Source: an uncultured Christensenella sp. (GTDB taxonomy: Bacteria; Bacillota; Clostridia; Christensenellales; UBA1242). From it: a stretch of DNA of 64,000 bases. Positions within the stretch are counted from its first letter, which is position 1. Every line of letters starts with the position of its first letter. This document shows, piece after piece, positions 1 to 39,394 of the stretch. The position numbers were made by a program, and so were the translations under genes. Below the pieces are notes generated by a model. That model did no database searches. It was not told where the DNA came from and worked only from the letters and a program-made list of their open reading frames with translations. Where the stretch lies: contig CASFHD010000002.1 of the NCBI GenBank assembly GCA_949294455.1, positions 20,724 to 84,723 of the forward strand. The letters run 5' to 3'.

Positions 1-714
1 GGACACTATTGCAAAAGAGTTGAAAGAGATGGTAAGTTTTATCTTTATAAACCAAAAGACCTTTCTAAAGACCAAACATATTTTTTGTGTGAAATTAGTC
101 AAGCACAACTTTCAAAGGTTATATTCCCCTTACAAGATTTATTAAAAACAGAAGTTCGTAAAATTGCTAGCGAAAATGGGTTGGTTACTGCTAATAAAAA
201 AGATAGCACAGGTATTTGTTTTATAGGAGAAAGAAATTTTAGAAAATTTTTAAAAGAATACATTCCTGCAAAACCTGGCTTGATTGTAGATACAAAGGGT
301 AATGTTTTGGGTGAACACGATGGTTGCGTCTATTACACAATTGGACAAAGAAAAGGATTAAATATTGGCGGAAAAAGTGGATATGCACAACGCAGATGGT
401 ATGTTGTTGATAAAGATGTGAAAACTAATAAGTTGATAGTGTCTTGTGGCGAAGGTAGCGAATTGTTTTCTAAATTTGTTGAAGTGTCGGATTTTAATTG
501 GATAACAGATGTCATTGATTTACCTTTTAATGCTTTTGCAAAACTCAGATACCGTGAACCAGATAAACCTTGCAAGGTAACTTTTAATAATGGGAAAATG
601 ATATTAGAATTTGATAGTCCTGAAAGGGCTGTTACAAAAGGTCAATTCGCTGTTTTATATGCAGAAGACGGAATGTGCTATGGCGGCGGAAAGATTACTA
701 ATTATTGGAAATAA
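1..714 (+). CDS. mnmA: tRNA 2-thiouridine(34) synthase MnmA, C-terminal part (5' end lies upstream of the window)
   Basis: The frame is open from nt 1 (GHYCKRVERDGKFYLYKPKDLSKDQTYFLC...). It carries the MnmA-type motifs DSTGICFIGERNFRKFL and YTIGQRKGLNIGG. Confidence 0.9.
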   Translation, partial: GHYCKRVERDGKFYLYKPKDLSKDQTYFLCEISQAQLSKVIFPLQDLLKTEVRKIASENGLVTANKKDSTGICFIGERNFRKFLKEYIPAKPGLIVDTKGNVLGEHDGCVYYTIGQRKGLNIGGKSGYAQRRWYVVDKDVKTNKLIVSCGEGSELFSKFVEVSDFNWITDVIDLPFNAFAKLRYREPDKPCKVTFNNGKMILEFDSPERAVTKGQFAVLYAEDGMCYGGGKITNYWK

Positions 715-731
715 TAGAATATATGTTCTAT

Positions 732-768
732 AAGTATTTGATTATTTTGTTCAAATACTTATTTTTTT
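732..768 (+). terminator. Rho-independent terminator after mnmA
   Basis: A 10-bp perfect stem aagtatttga/tcaaatactt with a 9-nt loop, followed by atttttttt. Confidence 0.7.
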
Positions 769-808
769 ATCATTTTATACAATATTTTAAAAAATTTGTC
801 GCAAAATG

Positions 809-837
809 TTGACATTATGTTCTAATTTTTCTATAAT
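809..837 (+). promoter_or_regulatory. Consensus sigma-A type promoter for the 861 ORF
   Basis: TTGACA (809-814), exactly 17 nt of spacer, then TATAAT (832-837). It lies ~24 nt upstream of the GGGGG RBS and ATG 861. Confidence 0.6.
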
Positions 838-860
838 TCGTATGTATTGAAGGGGGTATT

Positions 861-1325
861 ATGATTAACGAAATTGATGCAGAAGCATTAGTTACTGGTT
901 ATAAGTTTTTTGAAAGAACTTGTAAGGCTATTGATGGTTTTATTTATAATTTTGCTACTAATTTTGGTTCTGAAGAAACAGAAGAAATTGCTGATAAAAT
1001 CACCGATTTAATTGAAAGAAAAAACAAACTCATAAATTTGAAATTAGTTATTGATGAGTGTGTAAAAAAATTACCTATAAATTTAAGAGAAATAATTATT
1101 TTAAAAATGAAATACGTTTGTAGTGTAGAAAGTATGGCAAGTATTTTAAATGTTACTAAAAGAACGGTTTTTAGAAAAATAAAAAAGGCAATGTCTGCTT
1201 TGGCATACGAAATTAATAAAATGGAATACTCTAAAAAAATTGTAGAAATTATCTATAAAGAATGTTGGCTTGAACGAATTAAGGGACAAGTTATTAGAAG
1301 AAGGCATATAGAGGAGGTTGTTTAA
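861..1325 (+). CDS. Sigma-70 region-4-like HTH protein; ArpU/RinA-like phage late-gene activator candidate
   Basis: 154 aa. The C-terminal half, LPINLREIIILKMKYVCSVESMASILNVTKRTVFRKIKKAMSAL, has the layout of sigma region 4 / phage late activators. It sits just upstream of the terminase module and has a good RBS. Confidence 0.5.
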   Translation: MINEIDAEALVTGYKFFERTCKAIDGFIYNFATNFGSEETEEIADKITDLIERKNKLINLKLVIDECVKKLPINLREIIILKMKYVCSVESMASILNVTKRTVFRKIKKAMSALAYEINKMEYSKKIVEIIYKECWLERIKGQVIRRRHIEEVV

Positions 1326-2089
1326 AAGTCTTTTATTTCTTTTGATTTTTTGTTTTTACTTTTTAATATTTTTGATTGTTTTAATACCATAATGGTGAAA
1401 ACTAGTGCTGGAATTGATAATAAAATTATCACTACACTAGTTTTTTCATCGCCTAATTTTAAGGTTGTATCTGTATTTTTCTCTGTGTTCGGTTCAAACG
1501 AATCTATATATGTTACTATTTCAGTATTATCACTATATTCAGTCATATAGTCGCAACCATCACTATAACAATATCCTTTTATTATTTCATCACCGTAATA
1601 TTTAATGTAATACCAGGTAGTTGTTCTCAGTTCAATTACTGCTTCAGATTGAATGGTTCCGTAAAATTCTACATCTCTAGTATATAATGGCATATACATA
1701 ATTAAATTGCTGGCACCTGTACTAGCATACGGGGAAGTTCTAAGAGGTCTTGACACTTCAGAATATACTCTAAAACTTATATTATCTAAATAGGGATTTA
1801 TTGGAATGTTAGAAGTAAATTTTATATTGTTTAATTTAACATAGCCTGTCACGTCTTTGTATTCTACTTTTGCAAAATTTCCAACCGTTAAGGTTGCTTT
1901 CACAAAATATGTTTTTGGCAAAATAAACATTATATTAGATAGTTCGTTATCTTCTGTTGGGGTTTTATATAAATAAGTGTCATCAGTCATTACTCGAGCA
2001 TAGCAAAAATTTTCACTATAAGCGTAGGCTTCAATAGGACTAGAAAAAATTGTACTAAAAACTATAGTTATTATTAGAATTAATACCAT
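1322..2089 (-). CDS. Membrane-anchored protein with two SH3b-like repeats
   Basis: It has an N-terminal signal-like segment (MVLILIITIVFSTIFSS) and a C-terminal TM (VVIILLSIPALVFTIMVL) followed by a basic tail. Two segments show the pattern ARV..YLYKTP...VEYKDVTGYV / ..YYIKYYGDEIIKGYCY. Confidence 0.5.
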   Translation of the reverse strand: MVLILIITIVFSTIFSSPIEAYAYSENFCYARVMTDDTYLYKTPTEDNELSNIMFILPKTYFVKATLTVGNFAKVEYKDVTGYVKLNNIKFTSNIPINPYLDNISFRVYSEVSRPLRTSPYASTGASNLIMYMPLYTRDVEFYGTIQSEAVIELRTTTWYYIKYYGDEIIKGYCYSDGCDYMTEYSDNTEIVTYIDSFEPNTEKNTDTTLKLGDEKTSVVIILLSIPALVFTIMVLKQSKILKSKNKKSKEIKDF

Positions 2090-2171
2090 AAGTTAATTTT
2101 AACCTAAATATTTTTTTAGATTTTGACACCTATTGGTTTTTTTTGAAAAAAAGTGTTGTATATTCACAGAT

Positions 2172-3599
2172 ATGTACGAAGTCGTGCGAAAAATTCTGGA
2201 TATCGAAAGAGAACAAAAAATTCGTTTAAATAATAATAAACTACGATTATACAATAGTGGCGATAAAATTCATTTAAAACAAATTGAATTCCATAAAACA
2301 GATAAGAAAAATCGCTGGGTTTTTGGTGGAAACAGAAGCGGTAAAACAGAGTGTGGTGCCGTTGAAGTAGTTTACACTGCACGAGGTTGTCACCCTTATA
2401 GAAAGATACAAGGAGCAACTGAAGGTTGGGTGGTGTCTTTGACCTCTCAAGTACAGCGTGATGTCGCTCAAAAGAAAATATTGTATTATCTAAATCCTGA
2501 TTGGATTACTTCAATTGTGATGTCTAGTGGGAGAAAAGACAGTCCTCAAAATGGAATAATTGATTATATTTTAGTTAGAAATGTCTTTGGCAGTTTGTCT
2601 AGAATTGGTTTTAAAAATCAAGAACAAGGCAGAGAAAAGTTCCAAGGAACAAGTCTTGATTATGTTTGGTTTGATGAAGAACCTGTTTTAGATATTTATA
2701 TTGAATGTAAAATGCGATTGCTTGATAGAAATGGTTATATGTGGGGTACGATGACTCCGTTAAAAGGACTAACTTTTATTTATACAGATATTTATCTAAA
2801 CGAAAAAAATGACCCAAATATTTGGTATGAATTTATGCAATGGGACGACAATCCTTACATTTCTGTTGAAGCAAAAAAAATGCTTGAGAGCAGTTTGTCT
2901 TCAGATGAATTAAGAGCTAGAAAGTATGGCGAATTTATGAGTTTTGGAGGGCTTGTTTATAGTGAGTTTGATGAGCGGGTGAATGTAATTGAACCTTTTG
3001 ATATACCTATAGATTGGTATGATTTGGTGTCGATTGACCCGGGATTAAAAAATCCTCTTTCTTGTCATTTTTATGCAAGAGATTATGATGGTAATGTCTA
3101 TGTAGTGGCAGAACATTACGAATCAGATAAACCTATTGATTATCACGCTAAAAAAATTTTGGAAATCGCTGATAGATTAAACTGGCACAGGGGATTTAAT
3201 GGAAAATTGCAAGCACTTATAGACAGTGCGGCAAATCAGAGAACACTTGCAAGTGAAAAGTCTGTTACAATGCTTTTTGATGAATTAGGTATTAGTTGTA
3301 ACACTGATGTAAATAAAGACTTGTTTTCAGGAATTAATAAAGTTAAGTCTTACATTAGAACTAACGATGGAAAGAGACATTTATTTATCTTTAAAAGTTG
3401 CGTAAATATGATTCGAGAAATAAAAGGTTATTTTTGGGGCAATGATGATGCACCTATTAAAAAAGATGACCACGCAATGGACGAACTTAGATATTATTTA
3501 ATGTTTAGCAAATTAAAAGTAAAAAAAGTAGAAGACAATTCAACAGAAATTTCTAGGCATAAAGCAAGGCTTATAAACAGATTGAAAAAGTATGAATGA
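2172..3599 (+). CDS. terL: Phage terminase large subunit
   Basis: Walker A is GGNRSGKTECG and Walker B is LDYVWFDEEP. The C-terminal nuclease-type acidic motifs are VSIDPG, DSAANQ and DDHAMDELRY. The start is placed at ATG 2172, but the TTG at 2133 is possible. Confidence 0.85.
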   Translation: MYEVVRKILDIEREQKIRLNNNKLRLYNSGDKIHLKQIEFHKTDKKNRWVFGGNRSGKTECGAVEVVYTARGCHPYRKIQGATEGWVVSLTSQVQRDVAQKKILYYLNPDWITSIVMSSGRKDSPQNGIIDYILVRNVFGSLSRIGFKNQEQGREKFQGTSLDYVWFDEEPVLDIYIECKMRLLDRNGYMWGTMTPLKGLTFIYTDIYLNEKNDPNIWYEFMQWDDNPYISVEAKKMLESSLSSDELRARKYGEFMSFGGLVYSEFDERVNVIEPFDIPIDWYDLVSIDPGLKNPLSCHFYARDYDGNVYVVAEHYESDKPIDYHAKKILEIADRLNWHRGFNGKLQALIDSAANQRTLASEKSVTMLFDELGISCNTDVNKDLFSGINKVKSYIRTNDGKRHLFIFKSCVNMIREIKGYFWGNDDAPIKKDDHAMDELRYYLMFSKLKVKKVEDNSTEISRHKARLINRLKKYE

Positions 3600-3900
3600 T
3601 TTATTTGATATAAAAACTTTGGAAAGATTAAAAAAATTAGCAATGGGCGGAATAACTAAAGAGTTAAATAAAGAATTTGTTGCAGATAGTAATGGAATAT
3701 TAAAAATTGGCAAACAAAAAGAAGTTACAAAATTAACTCTTCCAGATGTCGATTTATTAAAATTTGTTTATTCAGTTTCACAAGAATTGAATATCAAAAA
3801 TATGTCAGATGAAGAACTTGAAAATGAAAAAAAGCGTTTAATTAAACAACTTTTACAGGAGGAAGAAAATGGAAATAGAAAAAGTGAGAATGAACATTAA
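3592..3900 (+). CDS. Hypothetical phage protein (102 aa, acidic C-terminus)
   Basis: The ATG overlaps the TerL stop by 8 nt, suggesting translational coupling. No motif was recognised. Confidence 0.5.
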   Translation: MNDLFDIKTLERLKKLAMGGITKELNKEFVADSNGILKIGKQKEVTKLTLPDVDLLKFVYSVSQELNIKNMSDEELENEKKRLIKQLLQEEENGNRKSENEH

Positions 3901-4090
3901 ATGTGATGGAAGCGGTTGTAAAAATTTGGCAACATATACAATTTTAAATAAAAAATTTGTATTTGATAGCAGCATTCATTTATGCGATGCTTGCTTAAAT
4001 GAATTGTATTCGATAATTGGGAAAATTGTAGTACCTAAAAATATTGAACCCATTTATAAATCAAAAGGAGTAAAAAATGAGAAAAACTAA
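3869..4090 (+). CDS. Hypothetical small 4-Cys (zinc-ribbon-like) phage protein
   Basis: A GGAGGA RBS precedes the ATG. Cys pairs CDGSGC ... CDAC are present. It overlaps both neighbouring genes. Confidence 0.45.
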   Translation: MEIEKVRMNIKCDGSGCKNLATYTILNKKFVFDSSIHLCDACLNELYSIIGKIVVPKNIEPIYKSKGVKNEKN

Positions 4091-5930
4091 ATATTTAGAG
4101 CAACTAGTTGAAAGCGTTGTCAATGATTTTAATTCAAGGCGTGAACAAAGAAGAAATCTTGAATCTCAATGGCAATTAAATATCAATTTTATGATAGGCA
4201 ATCAATATAGTTATATCGGAAATAATGGAAATATTTTTGATAGTGATAAACAGTATTTTTGGCAAGAAAGAGAAGTGTTTAATCATATTGCATCAAATAT
4301 AGAGGCACGAATTTGCAGAATTATAGATAAAATACCAACTCTTTCTGTGTTACCCGCTTCAAATGATATTGCAGATATTGAGAGCGCAAGGTTGTCTAAA
4401 GAAATTTTAGCAAGCGTTACAGATAGTATAGATTTAAAAGATATCGTTAGACACGCTGTAACTTGGTCAGAAATTACAGGAACTGCTTTTTATAAGATTT
4501 CTTGGAACGCAGATAAAGGCACAAATATAAGAATCAGCGATACAGAAAAAAGTGTTAAGATAGGTGATATTGATGTTACTGTTTGCTCTCCTTTTGAAGT
4601 GTTGCCTGATAATTTGAACATTGAAAACATTAGTGAATGTAAAAGTATCATTCACGCAAGAGCGTATAATGTCGATGATATAAAAACTATTTGGGGCAAA
4701 TCAGTAAAACCTGAAAAAGTGCGTGCATTTACTTTTGATAATATATCTACCTCTTTGGGTGGTTTGGGGTACAATGCCCATATAAATAAAGTAGCAAATG
4801 TTGAACTTCAAAATTCTGCTTTGATTATAGAAAGATATGAATTACCAAGCGAAGAATTTCCAAACGGAAGACTCACCATTGTGTGCTCTAACGAGTTGCT
4901 ATATGATGGAGAGTTGCCATATATTAATGCTGAAAATGGCGAGCGAACTTTTCCTTTTGTCAAACAAATTTCTAACTTTATGACAGGAAGTTTCTACGGA
5001 GTCAGTGTTATAGATAGAATGATTCCTATTCAAAGAGCTTATAACGCAGTAAGAAACAGAAAACACGAATACTTAAATAGAATTAGTATGGGTGTTTTAA
5101 CGGTTGAAGATGGTAGTGTGGACACTGATGCTTTGGAAGTTGATGGACTTTCTCCTGGTAAAGTTTTAGTTTACAGACAGGGCGGTAAGGCTCCTGAAAT
5201 TATGGAAGTCCCAGAAATGATAGGCGACTTTGCAACTGAAGAAGATAGACTTTTAGAAGAATTTAAAAATGTTTCTGGAATTTCTGACCTTGTTGAAACT
5301 TATAACAAGTATTCAAATTTATCTGGTACTGCACTAGAACTTATTTATGAACAAAATGAATTAAGACTATCTATGTCAATTTCTGAACTTAAAAAGTCAG
5401 TAAAACTGATAGGAAAACAAATTTTAAATCTTTATAAGCAATTTGCTGTTGTGCCAAGACTATTAAAGATTGCAGGAACGGAAGGCACCTTAAAAATGTA
5501 TTATTGGGATAATACGGAAATTTGTAGCGATGATGTAGTGATTGAAACACAATCAGATTTAGGGGATTCAATAACTACTAGGCGTGCAACTCTTATGGAA
5601 CTTATTAACAGTGGGCTATTGTATGATAAAAATGGAACATTTTCTGAATCTATGCGTAGAAAATGCCTTGATATGATAGGCTTTGGTTCTATCGAAACAA
5701 CGCAAGATATTAATGCTTTACATATAAATAAGGCAAAAGAAGAAAACTTAAAATTATCAAATGGAGATTCTGTACAAATTTTAGAAATTGATGACCATCA
5801 AATTCATATTGATGAACATACCGCACATATTCTGTCGCAAGAATTTAGAGCAAATGCTAGTGATTATACTATAGAAAAATTCTTGTTACATATTAGAGAA
5901 CATAAAAAATTGTTAAAAGGAGATAATTAA
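4077..5930 (+). CDS. Phage portal protein (by position and size)
   Basis: 617 aa, directly downstream of the terminase module and upstream of scaffold and capsid. The N-terminal segment SQWQLNINFMIGNQY is reminiscent of portal families as I recall them. No TM. Confidence 0.6.
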   Translation: MRKTKYLEQLVESVVNDFNSRREQRRNLESQWQLNINFMIGNQYSYIGNNGNIFDSDKQYFWQEREVFNHIASNIEARICRIIDKIPTLSVLPASNDIADIESARLSKEILASVTDSIDLKDIVRHAVTWSEITGTAFYKISWNADKGTNIRISDTEKSVKIGDIDVTVCSPFEVLPDNLNIENISECKSIIHARAYNVDDIKTIWGKSVKPEKVRAFTFDNISTSLGGLGYNAHINKVANVELQNSALIIERYELPSEEFPNGRLTIVCSNELLYDGELPYINAENGERTFPFVKQISNFMTGSFYGVSVIDRMIPIQRAYNAVRNRKHEYLNRISMGVLTVEDGSVDTDALEVDGLSPGKVLVYRQGGKAPEIMEVPEMIGDFATEEDRLLEEFKNVSGISDLVETYNKYSNLSGTALELIYEQNELRLSMSISELKKSVKLIGKQILNLYKQFAVVPRLLKIAGTEGTLKMYYWDNTEICSDDVVIETQSDLGDSITTRRATLMELINSGLLYDKNGTFSESMRRKCLDMIGFGSIETTQDINALHINKAKEENLKLSNGDSVQILEIDDHQIHIDEHTAHILSQEFRANASDYTIEKFLLHIREHKKLLKGDN

Positions 5931-6571
5931 TGGAAATTTCGGAACAACCACAATTAATGGACAATCTAGAAGATAAAAATTTAGACAGTGTAAAAGATGA
6001 TTTGTCTATGGAAAATGAAAAAATAGCAGGTCAAAGTGGCTCCGAAACTCTTGGCAAATTCAAATCAGTTGAAAGTCTATATAAGGCTTATAATGAATTA
6101 CAAAAAGAGTTTACAAAAAAAAGTCAAGAGTTAAGTGCGATTAAATCTAAACTCGATGATAAGGTAGAAACCCCAAAGAGTAAAGATGAATTAATCGACG
6201 AAAAAATTGAAGAATTTATAAAAAATTGCCCTAAAAGTGTAGTTTTTAAACAAAATTTTAAAGAAAATTTACAAAAAGATGAAAATTTTGACAGTAAAAA
6301 TTTATTTGAAATTTATGCAAACTTATTGGAAAATAATTCTAAATCTGCAGTTGAATATTCTGTCGATGAGAACTTTCTAAATGATTATATTTATTCAAAT
6401 GAAAAAATCAGAGAACATATCGTAAAAGATTACATTCAAAAAATTAAAAATATCACTCCTGTTAAGTTGTCAAATTCTAATCTTTCTTCAATTTCTATAC
6501 TTCCTCCAAATCAACCCAAAACGGTATCTGAGGCGGGCAAAATAGCAAAATCAATTATAAAACAAATTTAA
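5930..6571 (+). CDS. Scaffolding-like protein
   Basis: 213 aa, acidic and coiled-coil-rich. It lies between portal and capsid, and its ATG overlaps the portal TAA by 1 nt. Confidence 0.5.
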   Translation: MEISEQPQLMDNLEDKNLDSVKDDLSMENEKIAGQSGSETLGKFKSVESLYKAYNELQKEFTKKSQELSAIKSKLDDKVETPKSKDELIDEKIEEFIKNCPKSVVFKQNFKENLQKDENFDSKNLFEIYANLLENNSKSAVEYSVDENFLNDYIYSNEKIREHIVKDYIQKIKNITPVKLSNSNLSSISILPPNQPKTVSEAGKIAKSIIKQI

Positions 6572-6581
6572 GGAGATTTTT

Positions 6582-7781
6582 ATGGTAGATTTAACCTCTT
6601 GTCAAGCAGCTTTAAAAGACGCTTATCTCGTTGCTGCTTGTAATCAATTAAATACAATGGCAAATCCACTTTTGACTAAAATTAAACAGTCAACAGCTAA
6701 TGTATATGGTAAGCAAATTATTAAAATGGCACCTATTGGTTTGAATGGTGGCGTGGGTGCAGGTAGCGAAACAGGACTTTTGCCTACCGCAAATTCTAAT
6801 ACTTATGCAGAATTTAAAACAACTTTAAAAAATCTTTATGGTACTATTGAAATTTCTGATAAGGCAATCAGAGCTAGTGAAAGCAATTTGGGCGCATTTG
6901 TAAATTTATTGGACGCTGAAATGGAAGGTCTTTTGACTGCTTCTAAATTCAATCTTGGCAGAATGCTTTACGGAGATGGTTCTGGATTAGTTGCTACTGT
7001 TTCTAGTTATAGTAGTTCTACTCATACTGCTACTTTGGATAGTGTTAAAAATATTATGGAAGGTATGGTTTTAGATAGCTATTCTGAAGATACACTAGAC
7101 AATGCAGGCTTAAGAGTAAAATATGTTGACCGTGTTAATAAAACTGTTACTTTTGTGAGTGCTCCTAGTACTGATTTGGCAAGTAATGATAAATTATATG
7201 TTCAAGGTAGTAAAAATAATGAAATCACAGGTCTTGGTGCAATTTTTGGTTCTGGCACAACTTTATATGGGTTAAGCAAAACTGAGAATAAATGGTTGAC
7301 TCCTTACACTTCAAGTACAAGTCAAGAAATTTCTGATGATGTTATGTCTCAAGCTGTTGATTTCTTGGCAGAGTATTCAGCAAGTAATATTGATATGATT
7401 ACTTGTGGTAGCGCTGTTAAAAGAGCTTATCAAAACTATTTATCTTATTATAGAAGAAATGTAGATGTTATGGAATTGCAAGGCGGTTACAAAGCGCTGA
7501 CATTTAATGGTATTCCTGTAGTTACTGATAGATTTGTTGCTGATGATACTATGTATTTATTGGACACTTCAAAGTTTACTTTACATCAACTTTGTGATTG
7601 GGAGTGGATTGAAGGCGAAGGCGGAAAAATATTAAGACAAAAAGCGGGTTACCCAGCTTATACCGCAACTTTAGTTAAATATGCTGATTTGATTTGTGAA
7701 CAACCTAATGCTCAGGCTAAAATTTCAGGAATCAAAAGCAGTGTTACTAATCCTTTTACAACGGTAGTAGAGACTGCTTAA
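6582..7781 (+). CDS. Major capsid protein (by position, size and expression signals)
   Basis: 399 aa with an AAGGAG RBS. It follows the scaffold gene and is followed by a strong terminator. Rich in small residues, no TM. Confidence 0.65.
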   Translation: MVDLTSCQAALKDAYLVAACNQLNTMANPLLTKIKQSTANVYGKQIIKMAPIGLNGGVGAGSETGLLPTANSNTYAEFKTTLKNLYGTIEISDKAIRASESNLGAFVNLLDAEMEGLLTASKFNLGRMLYGDGSGLVATVSSYSSSTHTATLDSVKNIMEGMVLDSYSEDTLDNAGLRVKYVDRVNKTVTFVSAPSTDLASNDKLYVQGSKNNEITGLGAIFGSGTTLYGLSKTENKWLTPYTSSTSQEISDDVMSQAVDFLAEYSASNIDMITCGSAVKRAYQNYLSYYRRNVDVMELQGGYKALTFNGIPVVTDRFVADDTMYLLDTSKFTLHQLCDWEWIEGEGGKILRQKAGYPAYTATLVKYADLICEQPNAQAKISGIKSSVTNPFTTVVETA

Positions 7782-7795
7782 CGAAATAAATAATT

Positions 7796-7826
7796 AGAAG
7801 ATATTGTATCTTCTTTTTATTTTTAT
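7796..7826 (+). terminator. Rho-independent terminator/attenuator after the capsid gene
   Basis: Stem agaagata/tatcttct with loop ttg, followed by ttttatttttattt. Confidence 0.6.
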
Positions 7827-7885
7827 TTAAAAAAAATATAAATTTGTGTGTTTTTTACAATAAATTGCATAAAAATGGAGTAAAA

Positions 7886-8242
7886 ATGTTAAAAAAAATA
7901 AATTCTGATGTTTTTAATATATCTAATAGAATTAAAAAGATAAATAAAAACTTTTATCTTGTTTTTGATAGCAATAAAAATAAATTTGTATTATATAAAA
8001 AAAACAACATATTTAAAAGATATTTAGACGAGTATGTTTTGACTTTACCATTTGATTATTTAGATGATAGAAGTATTAAATATATTATAAATAGTGACTC
8101 AAAAAATCTACAAAAAATATTAGATGATATTGAAGAAAATAATAAAGTTATAGAAAAGAAAAATATTTTATTAACAAAAGAAAAAACTCAACAGAATCTT
8201 GAAGATTTATTGAAAAAATACACAAAACTAGGAGGGTTATGA
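7886..8242 (+). CDS. Hypothetical phage protein (118 aa)
   Basis: ATG 7886 is preceded by GGAG. Its stop overlaps the next ATG (ATGA). Confidence 0.5.
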   Translation: MLKKINSDVFNISNRIKKINKNFYLVFDSNKNKFVLYKKNNIFKRYLDEYVLTLPFDYLDDRSIKYIINSDSKNLQKILDDIEENNKVIEKKNILLTKEKTQQNLEDLLKKYTKLGGL

Positions 8243-8808
8243 ATTCGCTAGAAGTTATAAAAAAGGTTGCACGAATATTAAAAATACCTAATATTTACAA
8301 AAACGAAGATATTGATTCTATCACTGAGACTAATGAAACTGAAATATTGTCTTCTAATGAAGATCTTAATTTATGCTTTGATTTGTTAAAATTACAAATT
8401 AAAGAAATTGCTTCTAATGTCTGTGAAATTATTAAAAGCATTGTTTTGACACCAGAAAACAACAGAATCAGTTTAAATAATATTGGGAATTTTTTAAAAA
8501 TCAAAAAAATTGTATATGATAATCAATTGGTAAGTTTTAAAATTATAAATAATTATATTGTTTTGCCTATTGATAAAACTGTAGAAATTATATACTCTGA
8601 AGATGTACAACCATCTTCTCTTTTGGAAGATATAGATTACTTTAAAGGTGTATCTGATGATGTTTTGGTTTATGGTCTATGTTCTTATTACTCATTATCA
8701 TCTGGTTTGTTTGAAGAATATAACAACTTTCATTCTTTATATGAAGAAAAAATTAAAAATTGTAAAAATGTTAAAGTATTTTCATTAAAATTGAGGGATT
8801 GGGTATGA
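8239..8808 (+). CDS. Hypothetical phage structural protein (head-completion/adaptor candidate by position)
   Basis: 189 aa with ATGA overlaps at both ends. Confidence 0.45.
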   Translation: MNSLEVIKKVARILKIPNIYKNEDIDSITETNETEILSSNEDLNLCFDLLKLQIKEIASNVCEIIKSIVLTPENNRISLNNIGNFLKIKKIVYDNQLVSFKIINNYIVLPIDKTVEIIYSEDVQPSSLLEDIDYFKGVSDDVLVYGLCSYYSLSSGLFEEYNNFHSLYEEKIKNCKNVKVFSLKLRDWV

Positions 8809-10271
8809 GTTCGGCTAAATTTTCTAAAAAAAGATTAGTTTTCGATGATTTTTCAACAACCTTAATCAACGATGTTAATTATAATAAAAAGCATTTTGAA
8901 ACTACTAATATCTACAATATTAAATGTTGTGATGGGATTTTAAAAAATTGCAGTGGTATTAAAAAGGCTTGTGCTCCTTATACTTCTGATTATGGAAGCA
9001 ATGAGTCAGAATTTGAATATGATTCTTTGGGCTTAAATAAGTTTAGAAAACTCTATTATTTTAAAGAGTATTCTCTATATAATGCTTATAATAAATACAG
9101 GTTAATTGTCTTTGCTAATGATAATGAAATGTATGCTAATAGAATGTTTTTTAATTCTTTTGAATTTGCTAAAGTTCCTAATATGATTTTTTTTGAAGAA
9201 CCTAATGCTTTACGTTGTAAAATAGATGGAAAGTTTGCAACGCTTTTTGCTAGTTCTGATGATGATATGAGAGTTTGGGTGACTGATGAAACACCTTATT
9301 TTATTAACGAAATTTCTAAAATTAAAGATTTATGTTTCTTTGAAGATGTATTGTTTTGTATTAGAATGGGTGATGAGCAACAATTATGGTATACTTACAC
9401 TTTAGACATTAATGATATTGGAGGTACAAATTCAGGAAACATTGATTTATTTAACGACAGAGGCAGATGTGAAAAACTTATCGCTTTTAATGGAAGTTTG
9501 TTTGTCTTTAGAGAGTTTGGTATAACTAAAATTAGCGTTCTAGGTTCAAACAAATTTTCTATCACACATTTATTTGATTCAACTAGTACTATTTTTAAAG
9601 ATTCAGTCGCAGTATGCGGTAATAAAGTTATCTTTATGACTAAAGATGGATTATATTCATTCAATGGTGTTAGTGCTACTAAACTTGATTTAAAATTTAA
9701 TAATTTGCTTTTGGACGCAAGAAAAGAGGCAGTTGCTGCAACTATGCAAAATAAATATTTCCTTGCTTTTAGAACTGATTTTAATGATTCTGAACAAGTT
9801 GGCTGTGAAGCAAATAATGGATACATAAACAATGCTTTAATTATTATAGATATGGAAACTTATGACTTTGAATTGATTAGAGGCGTTGATATTAAGCATA
9901 TGCTTCCTGTTAAAGATGGCTATTTTGAAAGAATGTATTTTGTATTTAATACAGGTAATGTCGCTGATATTGGTCAACTTTGTGATGATAACACACTTTT
10001 CGGTCAAAATTTGAAAAAATCTTTATCCACTGACAAAATCTTTTCGGATAGTTTAAATAAAAAAACAATTAGAAAATTAAAAGTAGATGGTACTGCTGGA
10101 ACTATCGTAAAAGTGATTACTGAAAATGATAGTTATCCTTTCACTCTAAAAAAAGATGGTATAAATGAATTTTTTACGATTATTCCTTGTACTAATTTTA
10201 AATTTTGTATTGAAAGTAATAATAGTAGTTTATTAATTAACTTTATTGAAATTGAATGGCAAGAAAATTAA
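8805..10271 (+). CDS. Hypothetical large phage structural protein (488 aa)
   Basis: ATG 8805 overlaps the upstream stop (ATGA) and has a GAGGGA RBS. No TM and no recognisable motif. It is the largest post-capsid gene. Confidence 0.5.
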   Translation: MSSAKFSKKRLVFDDFSTTLINDVNYNKKHFETTNIYNIKCCDGILKNCSGIKKACAPYTSDYGSNESEFEYDSLGLNKFRKLYYFKEYSLYNAYNKYRLIVFANDNEMYANRMFFNSFEFAKVPNMIFFEEPNALRCKIDGKFATLFASSDDDMRVWVTDETPYFINEISKIKDLCFFEDVLFCIRMGDEQQLWYTYTLDINDIGGTNSGNIDLFNDRGRCEKLIAFNGSLFVFREFGITKISVLGSNKFSITHLFDSTSTIFKDSVAVCGNKVIFMTKDGLYSFNGVSATKLDLKFNNLLLDARKEAVAATMQNKYFLAFRTDFNDSEQVGCEANNGYINNALIIIDMETYDFELIRGVDIKHMLPVKDGYFERMYFVFNTGNVADIGQLCDDNTLFGQNLKKSLSTDKIFSDSLNKKTIRKLKVDGTAGTIVKVITENDSYPFTLKKDGINEFFTIIPCTNFKFCIESNNSSLLINFIEIEWQEN

Positions 10272-10287
10272 AAGGAGGTCATAATGT

Positions 10288-10914
10288 ATGAATAGACTAA
10301 AAAATTATAATTTTTGGCTTAGCATAATTAGTGCTGGCTTGCTTATTTGTCAAACTGTGTTTGATGTTAATTTTGATAGTGCTTATACCAATGAAATTAT
10401 TTCAGGAGTGCTAGGGTTATTTGTTGTGATTGGTATAATTAATGACCCTACAAAGTCTAATAGCAGTGAAGATGATAAATATAATAAAATAGTAGAAACT
10501 ATTAAATCTATATGTGATAATATTGAACTTTTAAAACAAAGCAATCAAAATATGGTTAATGAAGAAAATACATTATCAAATATTAATAATGATAATAATA
10601 TTAAAAATAATCTTGAAAATTTAGAAAATACTACCATTGACTTTTCAAATTTAAATTGTTCAAAAAAAGAAGAAATTTCAAACGAAAATGATGTTAGTAT
10701 TGATTCTATAAAAGACAAAACGGAAAATAATTCTAATGTTGATAATTTAGATAATGCTTTAACAAATCATGTTACTGATGAAAAGATAAATACGGACAAT
10801 TTAAAAAATATAAATAATGAAGATTCAAGTGATTCCTCTACAAACAATAATGATGTAAAAAATGAACAAAATTTAGACAATTTAATAGAAGGTGCTGTTT
10901 ATAATATACAGTAA
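10288..10914 (+). CDS. Holin, phi-LC3 (Phage_holin_1)-like, with a long N/D/S-rich C-terminal extension
   Basis: An AGGAGG RBS precedes it. The N-terminus RLKNYNFWLSIISAGLLICQTVF ... IISGVLGLFVVIGIINDPTKS matches the two-TM phi-LC3 holin pattern (..KN..FW....SA.LL..Q ... LGI..DPT). The rest is low-complexity. Confidence 0.6.
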   Translation: MNRLKNYNFWLSIISAGLLICQTVFDVNFDSAYTNEIISGVLGLFVVIGIINDPTKSNSSEDDKYNKIVETIKSICDNIELLKQSNQNMVNEENTLSNINNDNNIKNNLENLENTTIDFSNLNCSKKEEISNENDVSIDSIKDKTENNSNVDNLDNALTNHVTDEKINTDNLKNINNEDSSDSSTNNNDVKNEQNLDNLIEGAVYNIQ

Positions 10915-10955
10915 AAAGAAGAACTGCTAACTTTTGTGTTAGTAGTTCTTTTTTG
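10913..10955. terminator. Bidirectional terminator shared by the phage-like operon (+) and tRNA-Gln (-)
   Basis: A 13-bp stem aagaactgctaac/gttagtagttctt (one G.T pair) with loop ttttgt, flanked by an A-run upstream and a T-run downstream. Confidence 0.65.
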
Positions 10956-10962
10956 TTAACAT

Positions 10963-11037
10963 TGGCTGGGGTAGGTAGATTCGAACTACCGTATGCTGGA
11001 TTCAGAGACCAGAGCCTTACCGCTTGGCGATACCCCA
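10963..11037 (-). tRNA. tRNA-Gln (anticodon CTG)
   Basis: The reverse complement is TGGGGTATCGCCAAGCGGTAAGGC...CTGGT-CTCTGAA-TCCAG...GGTAGTTCGAATCTACC-TACCCCA-G-CCA. It folds as a cloverleaf with an encoded CCA and closely parallels E. coli tRNA-Gln2. Confidence 0.9.
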
Positions 11038-11350: not shown

Positions 11351-12361
11351 ATGAAAAAGAAAATAATAAGTTTTTGTCTAATATTTGCTCTTATTATTCC
11401 TGCAGTACTTTTTCTATCAGCTTGTGGAAAAGAAAAAGGTTCAACAAAATTGGACAGAACAAACACTGCACAAATAGTTAGTGTTTATCAAGATTATGGA
11501 GCAAATCTTTATGCTGAAATGACAGGATTTGAACACGACAAATATGAACTCACTGGTTCTTCTCGTAATAATTTAACTCTTGAATTTTCAATAAATAATG
11601 GAGATTGGTTTGAATGTTATCCAGTACAACTTTTTTATGATGAAAGTGGCAAGGGTGTTTATCAAATACTATTTGCCACATATAACTATGGAGATAGTGA
11701 AGTTGATTCTTTCACAACAATGATGACAGGTCAAAATGTAGAGCCGGGAGAAATTTCTATATCTGCTCGTATTCCAGAATCAAACACATACAACGCAAGT
11801 GCAGGCACATCTCCTATCACCTACACATTAAAATCAAAAATTCAAACAATTGATGATAAGATAGGTGCGGGAGTTTGTGGATTTGGTGATCAAGGAACGT
11901 CAAATACCTATGAAGAAGAAAAATTTGTTTTTTATAATGATTCTTCAAATCCATATAACTTAAAAGTAGGAAAATTTTATTCACAAGCAAATGAAAGTGG
12001 TGGCTATGACCGTTTTGTAAGAGAATTAACAGAGGAAGAAAAAACTCAATTTTCTGAATTCGATTTGGAATATAAAGTTGTTAATTATACTTCAAAATAT
12101 ATAACAACTGTCGAAGGCAGTGAAGATGAAAATATAGACACTTTGGAAATAACTAGTGATGAAAATGATGCTATTTATTCCACAGAAGGCTGGACAGGTA
12201 GTTTAAGTTTAAGTGAAAGCAATCTTTGGATTTATAAAAATACTGGACATTATTACGAATATATGATTTTCCTCGTAAGGCTAAAAGCTACTGATGATAC
12301 TGTTCAATCAGAAGCTATGTGTCTTGAAGTTTATATTGGTAATGAAGAAATAACACAATAA
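11351..12361 (+). CDS. Hypothetical lipoprotein
   Basis: The signal peptide carries a lipobox (MKKKIISFCLIFALIIPAVLFLSAC). A GGGGGA RBS precedes it. No other motif was recognised. Confidence 0.7.
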   Translation: MKKKIISFCLIFALIIPAVLFLSACGKEKGSTKLDRTNTAQIVSVYQDYGANLYAEMTGFEHDKYELTGSSRNNLTLEFSINNGDWFECYPVQLFYDESGKGVYQILFATYNYGDSEVDSFTTMMTGQNVEPGEISISARIPESNTYNASAGTSPITYTLKSKIQTIDDKIGAGVCGFGDQGTSNTYEEEKFVFYNDSSNPYNLKVGKFYSQANESGGYDRFVRELTEEEKTQFSEFDLEYKVVNYTSKYITTVEGSEDENIDTLEITSDENDAIYSTEGWTGSLSLSESNLWIYKNTGHYYEYMIFLVRLKATDDTVQSEAMCLEVYIGNEEITQ

Positions 12362-23143: not shown

Positions 23144-23851
23144 TTATAAATATAATCCTATTTTTATTGCTTCATCTTTTAAAAGTTCAAGTGCTTTTTT
23201 TTCAATTCTTGATATGTATGAACGAGATAATCCTAAAATTAGAGCGACTTCCCGCTGAGGAAGTGCGGGTTTATTATTTAAACCATATCTATATGATATA
23301 ACTTGATATTCTCTTTCATCTAAAACTTGTTTCATCATTTTATCTATGTCATCAGTTAAAATTTGTGCGTTTACCACATTATCTGTTTGCTTTTCTTCAC
23401 TCTCAGGTATTATATCCATAAGAGTTACCTCATTTCCATCTTTATCACAAATTAATGCTTCTTCTAAACTTTGCGTTCGCATATGTTTTTTATTAGACCT
23501 AAGTAACATTAAAATTTCGTTTTCTATACATCTTGATGCATAAGTTGAAAGCAAAGTACCCTTTGAAGAATTAAAACTATCTATTGCTTTTATTAAGCCT
23601 ATAGAACCTACAGAAATTAGATCATCTGCATCTTCTGCTCCTGAATATTTTTTTACGATGTGTGATACTAGTCTTAAATTATGAGTAATTAATTTATCGC
23701 GGGCATTTTTGTCTGTGTCTTTTATCAACAATAATTTAGCTTCTTCATCTTTTGATAGTGGTTTAGGGAAACCGTGTGCTTCGCTGTCTTTTACAAATCC
23801 TGTAAAAAACATAACTTTTGACATAAAAACTGATGCACTTTCAAATATCAT
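23144..23851 (-). CDS. sigK: Sporulation sigma factor SigK (pro-sigma-K), uninterrupted
   Basis: The prosequence-type N-terminus ends in FVKDSEAHGFPKPLS. Also present are HNLRLVSHIVKKY, DLISVGSIGLIKAIDSF, YASRCIENEILM and SRSYISRIEKKAL. The VSHIVKKY and FP.PL features favour SigK over SigE. Confidence 0.75.
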   Translation of the reverse strand: MIFESASVFMSKVMFFTGFVKDSEAHGFPKPLSKDEEAKLLLIKDTDKNARDKLITHNLRLVSHIVKKYSGAEDADDLISVGSIGLIKAIDSFNSSKGTLLSTYASRCIENEILMLLRSNKKHMRTQSLEEALICDKDGNEVTLMDIIPESEEKQTDNVVNAQILTDDIDKMMKQVLDEREYQVISYRYGLNNKPALPQREVALILGLSRSYISRIEKKALELLKDEAIKIGLYL

Positions 23852-24022: not shown

Positions 24023-25726
24023 ATGTCTTTAATATTAAGGTATTCCAATATAAGACGTGGAGGTATTACTTTTATAGGCAACACTCTAGGACTTAGCAAA
24101 AGACAAGACCTAAATCAATCTGGGACTTTAGGCTCAATTGGTGCTTTTACTAGTCTTAACAATGCTTTACAAGTAAATACTTTCCCTAATGGAACGACTT
24201 CAAATTATTTACTAAATGGCTCATCTGCCGTTTTGAATTTGCCTGTTGGAAGTACTGTTTTATATGCAGAACTCATTTGGGGTGGATTGTATAGGTCAAC
24301 GACAAATAATATTTTCAATTTGATAAATAATCCTATAACATTTACCACTCCGCTTGGTAGTAATTCGATAACTTCAGATATTGATACACGTCAAGATTTA
24401 TTGATACCAATTCAAGGCAATATATTAGGCTTTTATGTAAGAAGTGCAAATGTTACTAATCTTGTAGCAAATGCTCTTGCTGGTAACTATAGTGTTAGTG
24501 CTGTGCCTGCTTTAATAGAAGCCATAGAAAACACTACTAACTCTACTAATCACGCAGGTTGGACTTTGGCAGTTGTGTACGAAAATGCTTCTGAAGAATT
24601 AAAAAACTTATCGCTTTGGGCAGGTGGAGTTGTTGTAAATCCTAGTTCAGGTTCTACTGACATTACAATCACAGGTTTTATAACACCGCCTATACTTCCT
24701 ATTACAGGGAAAATTTTTGTGAGTGCCGGAGAGGGCGATGCGGTCTTGAGTGGGGACCAAATGTTGTTCGGAATAAATACTTCTAATTTATCAACTTTGT
24801 CTGGGCCTAATAACCCAGAAACAAACTTCTTTGCCTCTCAAATAAACGGTGATGATGGTTTAATAAATACTTCTGGAAGCTTTGGCACGAGAAATGCTAA
24901 TGCCTTCTTGGGTGGCAATACAACTGCTTGTAGGCAGGGTTGGGATATTACAACTGTAGATATTTCAAATAAATTAGTAGTAAATCAGTTTACTGCAGCA
25001 ATAAGATTTACAACGAATCAAGATTTATATGTGCCAAATGCACTTGCACTTCAAATAGAAAGTCTTGGAGCAAATTTGACTGCTACAAAAAGTGTGGATA
25101 AACAATTCGCAAAACTAGACGAAGAAATTGAATATACTATTTTAGTTGAAAATACGGGCAGTTTAAATGCTCAAAATGCTTTAGTTTTTGACGATTTTTC
25201 TTCCGAATTATCCCTTGTGGCAAACAGTATAACAGTTGATGGTGTAACTGTAGCAGATGTTTTTCCTATAAATTTAGGAACAATTTTGTCAAATCAATCT
25301 AAAACGGTAAAATTTAGAGTTAAAGTAAACTCTATACCAAATATTAATCCTATTTTGAATATTGCTAAAATAAATTATTCTTTCGAACCTTTCAAAGGAT
25401 TTGTTGTAAACTCATCAACTATTACAAATCAGGTATCAACTTTTATTATTAACCCAGATTTGAATATAACTAAATCTGTTGATAAAACCGTTGCAATAAA
25501 AGGCGATACTTTGACTTATAAATCATCAATAAAAAATATAGGTACTTTGCCTGTTTCAAATTTAACATTTACTGATATGATACCTACAGGAACAAACTTT
25601 TTGCCTTCAAGTGTTGTCATAAATGGAGTATTATATCCTTCATACAACCCTGAATTAGGCTTTTCATTACCTAATTTAGAACCAAACGAAGATGTAAATG
25701 TTGAATTTAAAGTAATAGTAATTTAA
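24023..25726 (+). CDS. DUF11 (conserved repeat domain, TIGR01451-type) protein, no signal peptide; candidate spore-surface protein
   Basis: A ~345-aa N-terminal domain (MSLILRYSNIRRGGITFIGNTLGLS...) is followed by two DUF11 repeats. Their pattern is TKSVDK..A..GD.L.Y...V.N.G.....N..F.D.IP.GT.F...SV. Confidence 0.7.
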   Translation: MSLILRYSNIRRGGITFIGNTLGLSKRQDLNQSGTLGSIGAFTSLNNALQVNTFPNGTTSNYLLNGSSAVLNLPVGSTVLYAELIWGGLYRSTTNNIFNLINNPITFTTPLGSNSITSDIDTRQDLLIPIQGNILGFYVRSANVTNLVANALAGNYSVSAVPALIEAIENTTNSTNHAGWTLAVVYENASEELKNLSLWAGGVVVNPSSGSTDITITGFITPPILPITGKIFVSAGEGDAVLSGDQMLFGINTSNLSTLSGPNNPETNFFASQINGDDGLINTSGSFGTRNANAFLGGNTTACRQGWDITTVDISNKLVVNQFTAAIRFTTNQDLYVPNALALQIESLGANLTATKSVDKQFAKLDEEIEYTILVENTGSLNAQNALVFDDFSSELSLVANSITVDGVTVADVFPINLGTILSNQSKTVKFRVKVNSIPNINPILNIAKINYSFEPFKGFVVNSSTITNQVSTFIINPDLNITKSVDKTVAIKGDTLTYKSSIKNIGTLPVSNLTFTDMIPTGTNFLPSSVVINGVLYPSYNPELGFSLPNLEPNEDVNVEFKVIVI

Positions 25727-25736
25727 GGAGATAATT

Positions 25737-26495
25737 ATGATTATAAATAATCTATCAAATGTCGTGTATAGTTATGTTTTGCCTGATGGTAATACTATAA
25801 CTGATACAAAAGATAGTAATGTAGTATCAACAGAAGTTTTAACTTACAATTTTTTGAAAGTAAAATCTTCTAATAAAACTTTTTTAAGAGAAGGTGAAAT
25901 AGCCGAGCAATCTGTTACACTAACTAATTCTTCAAGTCAAAATCTTACAAATTTATTTTTTAAAGATATTATGACTGATGGGGCTTCTCACGTAAGCGGT
26001 AGTGTAATTATAAATGGAATTAGTTATCCACTTTATGATTTAATAACAGGATTTTCACTTCCTAATATGAATCCAGGTGATGTAACAGAAGTAAAATATA
26101 ATGTTATAGCAAATAATCCTTTAACTCAAAATTTAGTAGTTAATCGTGCTAATATATCGTACATTGCTAATGAAACGAACTTTGCTGAAAATACAAATGA
26201 TGTAAATTTAATTGTTGTTTCATCTAGACTTTCTGTAATAAAACAAGTAGATAAATCTGTCGCAGTAAAAGGCGATATCTTGCATTATACAAATACTGTT
26301 TTAAATACGGGGACACTTGATAAAACTAATTTAACATTTAGAGATTTGATACCCGTTGGCACTAGTTTTGTCGTTGGAAGTGTAAAAATTAATTCAGTAC
26401 CACAACCAACATACAATCCGGAAACAGGATTCCCGTTGCCTGATTTGGCAGTCGGTGAAAACGCGATTGTAGAATTTGATGTGGAGGTGATTTAA
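25737..26495 (+). CDS. DUF11 repeat protein (two repeats), no signal peptide
   Basis: The repeat VIKQVDKSVAVKGDILHYTNTVLNTGTLDKTNLTFRDLIPVGTSFVVGSVKING... matches the DUF11 pattern. An AAGGAG RBS precedes it. Confidence 0.7.
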   Translation: MIINNLSNVVYSYVLPDGNTITDTKDSNVVSTEVLTYNFLKVKSSNKTFLREGEIAEQSVTLTNSSSQNLTNLFFKDIMTDGASHVSGSVIINGISYPLYDLITGFSLPNMNPGDVTEVKYNVIANNPLTQNLVVNRANISYIANETNFAENTNDVNLIVVSSRLSVIKQVDKSVAVKGDILHYTNTVLNTGTLDKTNLTFRDLIPVGTSFVVGSVKINSVPQPTYNPETGFPLPDLAVGENAIVEFDVEVI

Positions 26496-39133: not shown

Positions 39134-39394
39134 ATGAGTTTTTTTAATAGTTTTGATGATAAAATGCTTGAAGAATTTGGTATAGGATTGCAAGATTTTA
39201 GATATATTGTAATTTCTAACAAACTTTTTTATTTAGAAGGTTTAACAAATGTTTCAAGTCTTGCTGATGATGAAATTGTTTTTTCTGTAAAAAGAAAGTC
39301 CTGTAAAGTAATGGGGTCTAATTTGAAAATTAAAAATTTAGATATGAATACTGCTTTAGTGTCGGGGAATATTGTAGGAGTTAGCGTTTTATGA
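39134..39394 (+). CDS. yqfC: Sporulation protein YqfC
   Basis: A small protein immediately upstream of and overlapping yqfD. The C-terminal pattern is V.G..L.I......E..V.G.I..V. The start is uncertain (ATG 39134 or TTG 39113). Confidence 0.6.
   Translation: MSFFNSFDDKMLEEFGIGLQDFRYIVISNKLFYLEGLTNVSSLADDEIVFSVKRKSCKVMGSNLKIKNLDMNTALVSGNIVGVSVL

Follow-up and report, generated by a model that had tools for sequence, protein, structure and literature searches.

The DNA analysed here, referred to below as the window, is a stretch of 64,000 nucleotides from an uncultured Christensenella sp. of the family UBA1242 (GenBank assembly GCA_949294455.1, contig CASFHD010000002.1, positions 20,724 to 84,723), and it carries at window positions 715-10954 a compact element of phage-type genes that is the subject of this work. 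An earlier description of this DNA, made without database searches and called here the sequence-only reading, had recognised an operon of ten open reading frames (ORFs), all on the same strand and joined by overlaps that suggest translational coupling. This operon was confirmed at 2172-10914 on the plus strand, with an ATG at 3592 that lies 8 nt inside the end of the large terminase gene, a TAATG at 5930 and ATGA overlaps at 8239 and 8805. The interval holds twelve genes, not ten, namely the operon, a regulator gene and an SH3-domain gene on the opposite strand; the last two, at 861-2089, are conserved genes that the text of the sequence-only reading passed over within the interval it covered. 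The element and its flanks are similar in GC content, as had been observed before.

The first genes of the operon code for a DNA packaging motor. The large terminase subunit, TerL (2172-3599), matches PF03237 and phrog_2 (1.9e-28), and its profile matches the solved structures of a TerL (5oe8, 7e-12) and of the P22 gp2 nuclease (4dkw, 3e-4). The Walker A (GGNRSGKT) and Walker B (DYVWFDEE) motifs and the nuclease Asp residues, previously reported as intact, are invariant in 20 species, and the ratio of nonsynonymous to synonymous divergence (dN/dS) of TerL is ~0.055 in pairs across species. The next ORF (3592-3900, 102 aa) codes for a small-terminase-like (TerS-like) protein, which was recognised via its orthologues (alignment A10): 8 of 18 match phrog_309 (best 1.4e-8) and 4 of 18 match phrog_23444, both annotated as terminase small subunit. 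The statement that the interval lacks a small terminase is therefore probably wrong. It is followed by a 73-aa Zn-ribbon protein (3869-4090), 48-63% identical among close relatives, whose four cysteines (C12, C17, C39 and C42) are invariant in 18 species (alignment A9).

The head genes follow in the same direction. The portal (4077-5930) matches PF16510 P22_portal (1.1e-20) and phrog_156 (3.9e-34), and the major capsid protein (6582-7781), of the HK97 fold and podovirus type, matches NF033394 capsid_maj_Podo at 7e-78 (262 bits), with further matches to phrog_14242 (1.8e-55) and PF17236 SU10_MCP; its profile found nothing among PDB sequences. Between the two, in all loci, lies a gene (5930-6571 in the window) with no Pfam or PHROG family match, whose position and composition point to a putative scaffolding protein. 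The capsid gene had been credited with a strong ribosome-binding site and a terminator of its own. An AAGGAG is indeed present 5' of the gene, and 3' of the gene there is a hairpin with a T-run (7796-7825, plus strand; dG -10.8, z -3.5), weaker than the one behind the holin gene; it is possibly an attenuating terminator, and it is not kept in relatives, in which the spacer from capsid to next gene is 10-50 nt.

Our results show that the operon, which had been described as tail-less, also encodes the core of a short tail. Sequence-profile searches of the families of the three ORFs downstream of the capsid gene (118, 189 and 488 aa) against PDB sequences found nothing, and structure searches alone were informative. 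The AlphaFold2 model of the 488-aa protein (8805-10271; pLDDT 85, pTM 0.85) consists of a beta-propeller plus a beta-sandwich, and its best Foldseek matches are all podovirus nozzle or hub proteins, with template-modelling (TM) scores of 0.6-0.7: the Pa223 tail (9nwi_Y, 2e-19, TM 0.69), VP1 (8zkk_O, 1.6e-16, TM 0.71) and P22 gp10 (8eap_D, 7e-14), with GP4, Pan3, SU10 and T7 gp12 among the others. With high confidence, this protein is predicted to be a podovirus tail nozzle of the P22 gp10 and T7 gp12 class. For the 189-aa protein (8239-8808; pLDDT 70, pTM 0.53) the top Foldseek matches come from podovirus portal-tail complexes and are chains of adaptor size (KHP30 at 3e-5, LME-1, crAss001, SU10, Pa223 and N4; TM ~0.5), and its matches in BFVD bear names such as Tail tubular protein A, Gp11 and Head to tail adaptor. 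A head-to-tail adaptor of the T7 gp11, or tail tubular protein A, class is thus predicted with moderate confidence. Adaptor and nozzle folds, which together make up the core of a podovirus tail, are both encoded 3' of the capsid gene, as the sequence-only reading had surmised when it proposed that the 189-aa and 488-aa proteins might be adaptor and tail knob. Of the five ORFs that it had singled out for profile and structure searches, these two were resolved by structure and 3592-3900 through its orthologues, but the conserved 118-aa protein (7886-8242), although collinear in relatives, has no PDB, PHROG or Pfam match. The operon is therefore not tail-less: besides a packaging motor and a head, it has genes for a stub tail core.

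The last gene of the operon (10288-10914) codes for a holin with a long low-complexity C-terminal tail, which matches PF04531 (8e-6) and phrog_297 (1.5e-10) and has a dN/dS of 0.44. Its previous assignment to the phi-LC3 type holds as far as the holin family is concerned, but the match to the phiLC3-type model TIGR01598 (8e-8) lies below the family cut-off. The terminator that had been placed between holin and tRNA-Gln was found as a strong bidirectional hairpin with A and T runs at its sides (10915-10954; dG -21.6 kcal/mol, z -7.3), and none of 200 shuffled sequences was as stable. Both operon hairpins were found by folding, while a strict consensus terminator scan missed them, given their few G-C pairs.

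In a distant clade of loci a further gene lies between nozzle and holin. It codes for a DUF7934 protein of ~300 aa (E 1e-35 to 1e-43; L061 13780-14685, L070 13686-14555 and L073 14936-15886), and in L073 it is accompanied by a 392-aa ORF with no matches. They may represent additional parts of the tail or the lysis machinery, since lost from the lineage of the window.

Upstream of the operon, the regulator gene (861-1325, plus strand) codes for a protein of 154 aa in which sigma-70 region 4 is the sole recognisable domain (PF08281 Sigma70_r4_2 at 2.4e-6; phrog_36, a transcriptional regulator family, at 1.5e-13). NCBIfam sigma models, ECF ones among them, were matched over the C-terminal half of the models only, and there is a weak match to PRK06930, the positive control sigma-like factor. 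The gene is collinear in relatives, with 26-42% identity, and its product is a candidate activator of the structural operon. The same ORF was considered as the small terminase and rejected, because a promoter of its own precedes it, a gene on the opposite strand stands between it and TerL, and the TerS-like ORF is a better candidate for that role. The separating gene (1322-2089, minus strand) codes for a membrane protein of 255 aa with a signal peptide, an SH3b domain (PF08239 SH3_3 at 2.7e-4, below the cut-off) and a C-terminal transmembrane segment; in relatives it always lies between regulator and TerL on the opposite strand, and its dN/dS is ~0.2.

The sequences around these two genes suggest how the operon might be controlled. 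Directly 5' of the regulator gene is a sigma-70-type promoter (809-837, plus strand; TTGACA-17-TATAAT) that fits the consensus at 12 of 12 positions, and relatives have TTGACT-17-TAtAAT at the matching place. Further upstream, at 715-730, lies a LexA-type box of the Cheo kind, TAGAATATATGTTCTA, with the core GAAT-N4-GTTC at 717-728. In 53 of 58 loci a box with no more than one mismatch to GAAC-N4-GTTC lies 5' of the regulator gene, without any mismatch in 22 of them, and in most loci it stands at about -137 from the regulator start codon, against a background of 0.22 per kb; the consensus in relatives is TA[G/A]AACAnnnGTTCGA. LexA may thus bind here, at the candidate site TAGAACAnnnGTTCGA. Between mnmA and the regulator promoter there is also a hairpin with a T-run (732-768, plus strand; dG -13.1 and z -4.3 on folding of 714-770), which is probably the mnmA terminator. 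The second region of interest is the conserved spacer between the SH3 gene and TerL (2090-2171, plus strand), with a TTGACA-like box at 2123-2128 and the box GTGTTGTATATT at 2153-2164, adjoining the TerL start. An alignment of 16 species (A7) shows an invariant TG.CA and, beside the TerL start, the consensus TTTTGGTGTAAATTA. The spacing of the boxes is not sigma-A-like, and the spacer is a candidate for a dedicated late promoter.

The same alignment holds an observation on the SH3 gene. A conserved ATTTTAACATAA abuts its start codon (window 2087-2105); read on the minus strand it is TTATGTTAAAAT, an extended -10-like sequence 5-7 nt before the ATG, with no Shine-Dalgarno sequence, which suggests that the SH3 mRNA is leaderless or nearly so.

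The element is widespread. Its capsid protein has more than 6,400 close database relatives, the first 120 of them with 71-79% identity and many of them on contigs that run to hundreds of kb, and a capsid relative is encoded in 522 species, in a set that has a single genome for each GTDB species. The 80 best loci show the complete module in collinear form, in the order regulator, SH3 gene (opposite strand), TerL, TerS-like gene, Zn-ribbon, portal, scaffold, capsid, 118-aa protein, adaptor, nozzle and holin. In 48 species the contig is long enough to span the module, and in 47 of these every core ORF reaches at least 80% of its full length. Compared with the window copies, identity is 60-77% for the capsid, 59-68% for TerL, 44-61% for the portal and 23-46% for tail and accessory proteins, and the proteins of the element vary in identity in step with the flanking host proteins (Spearman rho 0.53-0.85, p down to 6e-13). 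In the comparison with the sister genome L001, portal, scaffold, capsid, 118-aa protein, adaptor and nozzle have dN/dS values of 0.06-0.12 (synonymous divergence, dS, 0.09-0.55), and the median over many more divergent pairs is 0.05-0.30. The comparison of the interval across relatives that the sequence-only reading had called for thus returned synteny, intact genes and low dN/dS.

When the same pairs of genomes are compared, the median dS is 1.09 for the capsid gene and 1.6-1.8 for TerL, portal and nozzle, a difference that may reflect codon-usage selection on a highly expressed gene.

These data bear directly on the possibility that the element is a defective prophage remnant, drifting neutrally and without function, which was one of the options raised before. 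The gene set is incomplete for a phage and a tRNA gene adjoins, as would be expected of a remnant, but twelve genes collinear in 48 species with an intact core in 47, dN/dS of 0.06-0.12, invariant catalytic residues, conserved regulatory motifs and retention in genomes below 1 Mb do not describe a decaying stump, and neither do the conserved place of the element and its co-divergence with the host. We consider this explanation very improbable. Recent independent insertions of one phage were also excluded, by the conserved flanks together with the 60-79% divergence of the capsid. The element goes back to one old acquisition and has since then evolved like host genes.

The chromosomal surroundings add to this picture. 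On the right, the terminator is followed by tRNA-Gln(ctg) (10963-11037, minus strand), and in most close relatives this tRNA gene, on one strand or the other, likewise comes after the holin gene, with tRNA-Lys, MurG and RNase J as recurrent neighbours further downstream. An att-like repeat of tRNA-Gln was searched for around the element and not found, as the sequence-only reading had stated, and the tRNA gene is a conserved neighbour, not an att site. On the left, relatives have spoIIGA-sigE, a sigma gene, a polysaccharide deacetylase and a gene for single-stranded DNA-binding protein (SSB), in about 50 loci that include distant ones. The left side of the window is exceptional, with mnmA in place of these genes, and the left junction must therefore have been rearranged right at the LexA-type box. 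The description of the element as fixed between mnmA and tRNA-Gln is thus true of the tRNA-Gln side, common to most close relatives, but the mnmA side is peculiar to this species.

Some details of the neighbourhood may be recorded here. The tRNA-Gln(ctg) gene next to the holin differs in strand between species, plus in some and minus in others (L005, L014, L019, L031, L042, L049 and L054 versus the window), which is a local inversion with the position kept. In L105-L108 (1-4300) and about 50 other loci the element lies directly 3' of sporulation-related genes, the full order at the left being spoIIGA (Peptidase_U4) and sigE on the minus strand, a 256-aa sigma factor, a small ORF, the polysaccharide deacetylase and a long SSB. 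A sporulation role of the element was considered in view of these neighbours and dropped, as nothing except adjacency supports it.

No integrase, repressor, replication, protease, tape-measure, fibre or endolysin gene was found in 715-10954 on either strand, in agreement with the earlier description. This is relevant to a second alternative, in which the element is a helper-dependent satellite of the type of capsid-forming phage-inducible chromosomal islands (cf-PICIs), which would build heads and neck by itself and rely on a co-resident phage for fibres, lysis or replication. Like the element, cf-PICIs are small and chromosomal and have their own terminase, portal, capsid and connectors, and a gene set of little more than head plus connector, a locus devoid of fibre and endolysin genes and an adjoining tRNA gene would all suit such a satellite. 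However, the equipment of cf-PICIs, an integrase, att sites and modules for replication and regulation, along with the use of helper siphovirus tails, was not seen in the element: it has no integrase, excisionase, primase, replication gene or att repeat, and it encodes an adaptor and nozzle of its own, at odds with the tail-borrowing capsid satellite previously suggested. In addition, it keeps the same neighbourhood over dozens of species and co-diverges with host genes, next to a tRNA that is intact and found in either orientation, and in some species the locus is split or interrupted. A satellite is accordingly an improbable explanation.

Such split and interrupted loci deserve attention for another reason. 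In L061 no TerL lies within ~7 kb either side of the module, with PGI, a pseudouridine synthase and Tex upstream, and the locus is split; in L070 (3555-6917), as well as in L076 and L092, a 1120-aa ORF of no clear family stands between TerL and the TerS-like gene. Arrangements of this kind would be intolerable for a phage and tolerable for a gene set run by the host, and therefore favour domestication.

The search for free phage relatives leads to the same conclusion. IMG/VR matches were short contigs with the same module (L081-L099), and these 'viral' contigs are therefore chromosomal host genes rather than phages. The 55-kb 'viral' contig L100 was rejected as a phage: it is host DNA with a truncated capsid gene at its end only. 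L102 was set aside as well, as its capsid gene is a different and shorter one. After the truncated gene, L100 (IMGVR_UViG_3300023371_000131, 1-10835) carries YpsA, a type I restriction-modification system and a LexA-like S24 peptidase.

Among deposited phages, those closest in TerL, portal and capsid, at 23-30% identity, are Microbacterium phage Shocker and Arthrobacter phages Jasmine, Brad and Adat; for the nozzle there was no match among deposited phages. These phages share with the element the order TerL, two small ORFs, portal, scaffold-position gene and capsid, but they are full phages of ~45 kb with lysis cassettes and large tail proteins. In hhalign comparisons the nozzle and adaptor profiles of the element did not match Shocker gp33 and gp32 significantly (nozzle-gp33 E 0.043). 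The folds of adaptor and nozzle are those of the podovirus tail machines (P22 gp4/gp10, T7 gp11/gp12, SU10, Pa223 and VP1), and P22 has the same order of capsid, adaptor and nozzle; the element differs in having no needle or plug, tailspikes, fibres or internal ejection proteins, and identity is just 9-18%.

Taken together, domestication and vertical inheritance of the element are well supported. We propose, with a probability of about 0.6, that it is a domesticated, vertically inherited gene transfer agent (GTA)-like element of podovirus type, derived from a short-tailed phage, an option that the sequence-only reading had included and that fits the data. In line with what defines GTAs, the phage-like genes are chromosomal, inherited vertically and under purifying selection, and no replication, integration or excision functions of their own were found in 715-10954. 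Nor does the element have what would be expected of a temperate podovirus prophage, namely integrase and att sites, a repressor switch, replication genes and a full tail with receptor-binding proteins. The LexA-type box in 53 of 58 loci and the sigma-region-4 regulator bear on host control, with a box position that is atypical and a LexA binding that is only predicted. The function itself, that particles would form, package random DNA and transfer it to recipients, we infer from gene content and precedent.

Under this proposal, the regulator gene would be controlled by DNA damage through its own consensus promoter and the upstream LexA-type box, as part of the SOS response. The region-4-only regulator would then turn on the non-sigma-A promoter in the TerL spacer, as in the defective phage PBSX, and the ten-gene operon would supply a minimal podovirus-like particle composed of the motor of TerS-like protein and TerL, a head and a stub tail, together with the Zn-ribbon and 118-aa proteins. 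Finally, the holin would lyse the producing cell and release the particles, whose heads would be filled with pieces of the host chromosome; such filling is to be expected because there are no replication, excision or pac-specific functions.

The closest precedent is the FpGTA of Faecalibacterium prausnitzii (PMC12946183, Nat Commun 2026), whose operon I is chromosomal, of ~10 kb and ten ORFs. Its particles of ~40 nm, with a load of 8.4-8.9 kb of host DNA, are documented by electron microscopy, proteomics and packaged DNA, a second operon 125 kb away encodes fibres, a receptor-binding protein, holin and endolysin, and the system is near-ubiquitous in the host genus (PMC12946183). Both are ~10-kb, ten-ORF operons in gut Clostridia without integrase, with a short TerS, TerL, portal, scaffold-position gene, capsid, two small genes and a nozzle of the P22 gp10 type (8eap). 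They are set apart by the family names of their capsids, 'N4-gp56 family' for FpGTA (RCH50849.1) and NF033394 capsid_maj_Podo here; in an NCBIfam scan the capsid of the element had no N4-gp56 match at E up to 0.01, the two proteins not having been aligned directly. Moreover, TerS is upstream of TerL in FpGTA and downstream of it here, the holin is in the second operon in FpGTA and in the main operon here, and the regulator, SH3 gene and LexA-type box of the element are not described for FpGTA. No second operon with fibres, receptor-binding protein and endolysin was found among the scanned ORFs of the 64-kb window. FpGTA particles have been observed, whereas the element is known here from its genes.

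PBSX of Bacillus subtilis is likewise a chromosomal defective-phage element in a Firmicute, and offers a parallel for the control of the element. Its induction follows DNA damage, and expression of its late operon depends on the sigma-like positive factor Xpf, a role to which the weak PRK06930 match of the regulator corresponds; it packages random host DNA and is released through a holin. It differs in its size (~28 kb), its contractile myovirus tail, its bacteriocin action and its Xre repressor, and its structural genes have no sequence relation to those of the element except for a weak match of TerL to the TerL family TIGR01547 (8e-5, below the cut-off). The GTAs of the RcGTA type in Alphaproteobacteria resemble the element in their vertical inheritance, purifying selection and absence of integrase and replication genes; their TerS without DNA-binding domain, host regulation, genes that can be dispersed over several loci and release by lysis may be further points of resemblance. 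Unlike the element, they have a siphovirus-like long tail, unrelated gene families and control by CtrA, GafA and quorum sensing.

PBSX is also a reminder that packaging of DNA need not imply its transfer, since it acts as a bacteriocin despite packaging DNA (PMC12946183). By analogy, the element could make a particle that serves the host in another way, as a host-controlled device for altruistic lysis or for killing; possible roles are the release of DNA or nutrients, a PBSX-like bacteriocin or the delivery of cargo to partner cells. The conservation and selection data fit such a use as well as they fit a GTA, no fibres, ejection proteins or endolysin were found among the scanned ORFs, and the hosts are proposed to be partner-dependent (PMC12306168). 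On the other hand, TerL, with its invariant ATPase and nuclease residues, and the TerS-like protein are under strong constraint, which indicates that DNA packaging itself is selected, and a stub tail with no contractile or piercing apparatus would be a poor killing device. We therefore regard a particle made for purposes other than gene transfer as unlikely.

Several observations weigh against a GTA-like element as proposed here. The operon contains no gene for a tail fibre, receptor-binding protein, needle or plug, ejection protein or endolysin, and none was found among the scanned ORFs of the window, several smaller ORFs having been left unscanned; adsorption, DNA delivery and cell-wall breakdown are therefore without identified genes. 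The window copy of the TerS-like ORF, taken by itself, has a family match below threshold, and the adaptor model is of moderate confidence only, with a pLDDT of 70 and an alignment of 4 sequences. With regard to regulation, the LexA-type box of the window has one core mismatch and lies between the mnmA stop codon and a terminator-like hairpin; it stands ~75 nt 5' of the -35 element and not over the promoter, an atypical position for a LexA operator, and the step of DNA-damage control is therefore tentative. The synonymous divergence behind the dN/dS values is near saturation in most species pairs. Particles, packaged DNA and transfer are predicted from the genes, and the head may or may not be too small for the element's own 10-kb locus. 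As to the earlier description, its positive statements were largely correct, while two of its negative ones, on the tail and on the small terminase, were wrong or probably wrong.

The other scanned ORFs of the window are housekeeping genes, with MurG, RNase J, PolA, Obg, Era, RecO, PcrA, LigA, SMC and YqfD among them. The variable part of the neighbourhood is the stretch from holin to MurG. Here, between tRNA-Gln and tRNA-Lys, the window has a gene for a 336-aa lipoprotein with no family match (11351-12361, plus strand), for which tblastn matches were found in 3 fetched loci only (L001 95%, L023 73% and L003 55%) and whose dN/dS against L001 is 0.26. At 24023-26495 (plus strand) there are two adjacent DUF11-repeat proteins with the look of surface proteins, unrelated to the element. 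The window also encodes a SigE-like sigma factor (23144-23851, minus strand), 50% identical to the L105 sigE fragment, and the stage IV sporulation protein YqfD (39391-40494, plus strand), in keeping with the retention of sporulation genes reported for the reduced genomes of UBA1242 (PMC12306168).

The hosts of the element are themselves unusual. The loci are labelled by NCBI as Clostridia, Christensenella or Candidatus Onthoplasma (Christensenellales), and both Onthoplasma and HGM11372 belong to the GTDB family UBA1242 (PMC12306168). Genomes of this family are mostly smaller than 1 Mb, with most biosynthetic pathways absent and sporulation genes unexpectedly kept, and hosts with such reduced genomes have been proposed to depend on partners (PMC12306168). 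The word 'phage' is absent from that study (PMC12306168), and two of its metagenome-assembled genomes (MAGs) are among our loci (L051 and L055). One locus, L037 (HGM11372), lies on a single contig of 858,737 bp. The ~10-kb module takes up about 1% of such a genome and is intact in nearly every species, and the retention of ~10 kb of phage genes in genomes below 1 Mb argues for a function.

GTAs have been well characterised almost solely in Alphaproteobacteria, and FpGTA, described in 2026, is the first podovirus-like example from a gut commensal. If our proposal is true, the element would be a second capsid family with the same minimal architecture, present in the genomes of at least 522 species. 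It would also provide a candidate locus for the GTA-like packaging recorded in Christensenellales, where packaging of 4-7 kb was reported in Christensenellaceae MAGs (HGM11616 and QANA01), from human faecal virus-like particles, with the locus not identified (PMC12946183). Reads of this length, from other Christensenellales, bear indirectly on the GTA trait of packaging largely random host DNA in fragments shorter than the agent's own genes. A wider and more tentative scenario joins these points: the element would be an ancient podovirus-type GTA spread across the order Christensenellales, under a LexA-controlled sigma-like activator, which would have been kept even in the obligately partner-dependent UBA1242 because recombination through particles offsets mutational decay in their tiny genomes, and this locus or its relatives would be behind the packaging seen in Christensenellaceae. 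Kept intact and under selection in some of the smallest free-standing Firmicute genomes, the element offers a natural test of whether exchange by GTAs serves genome maintenance.

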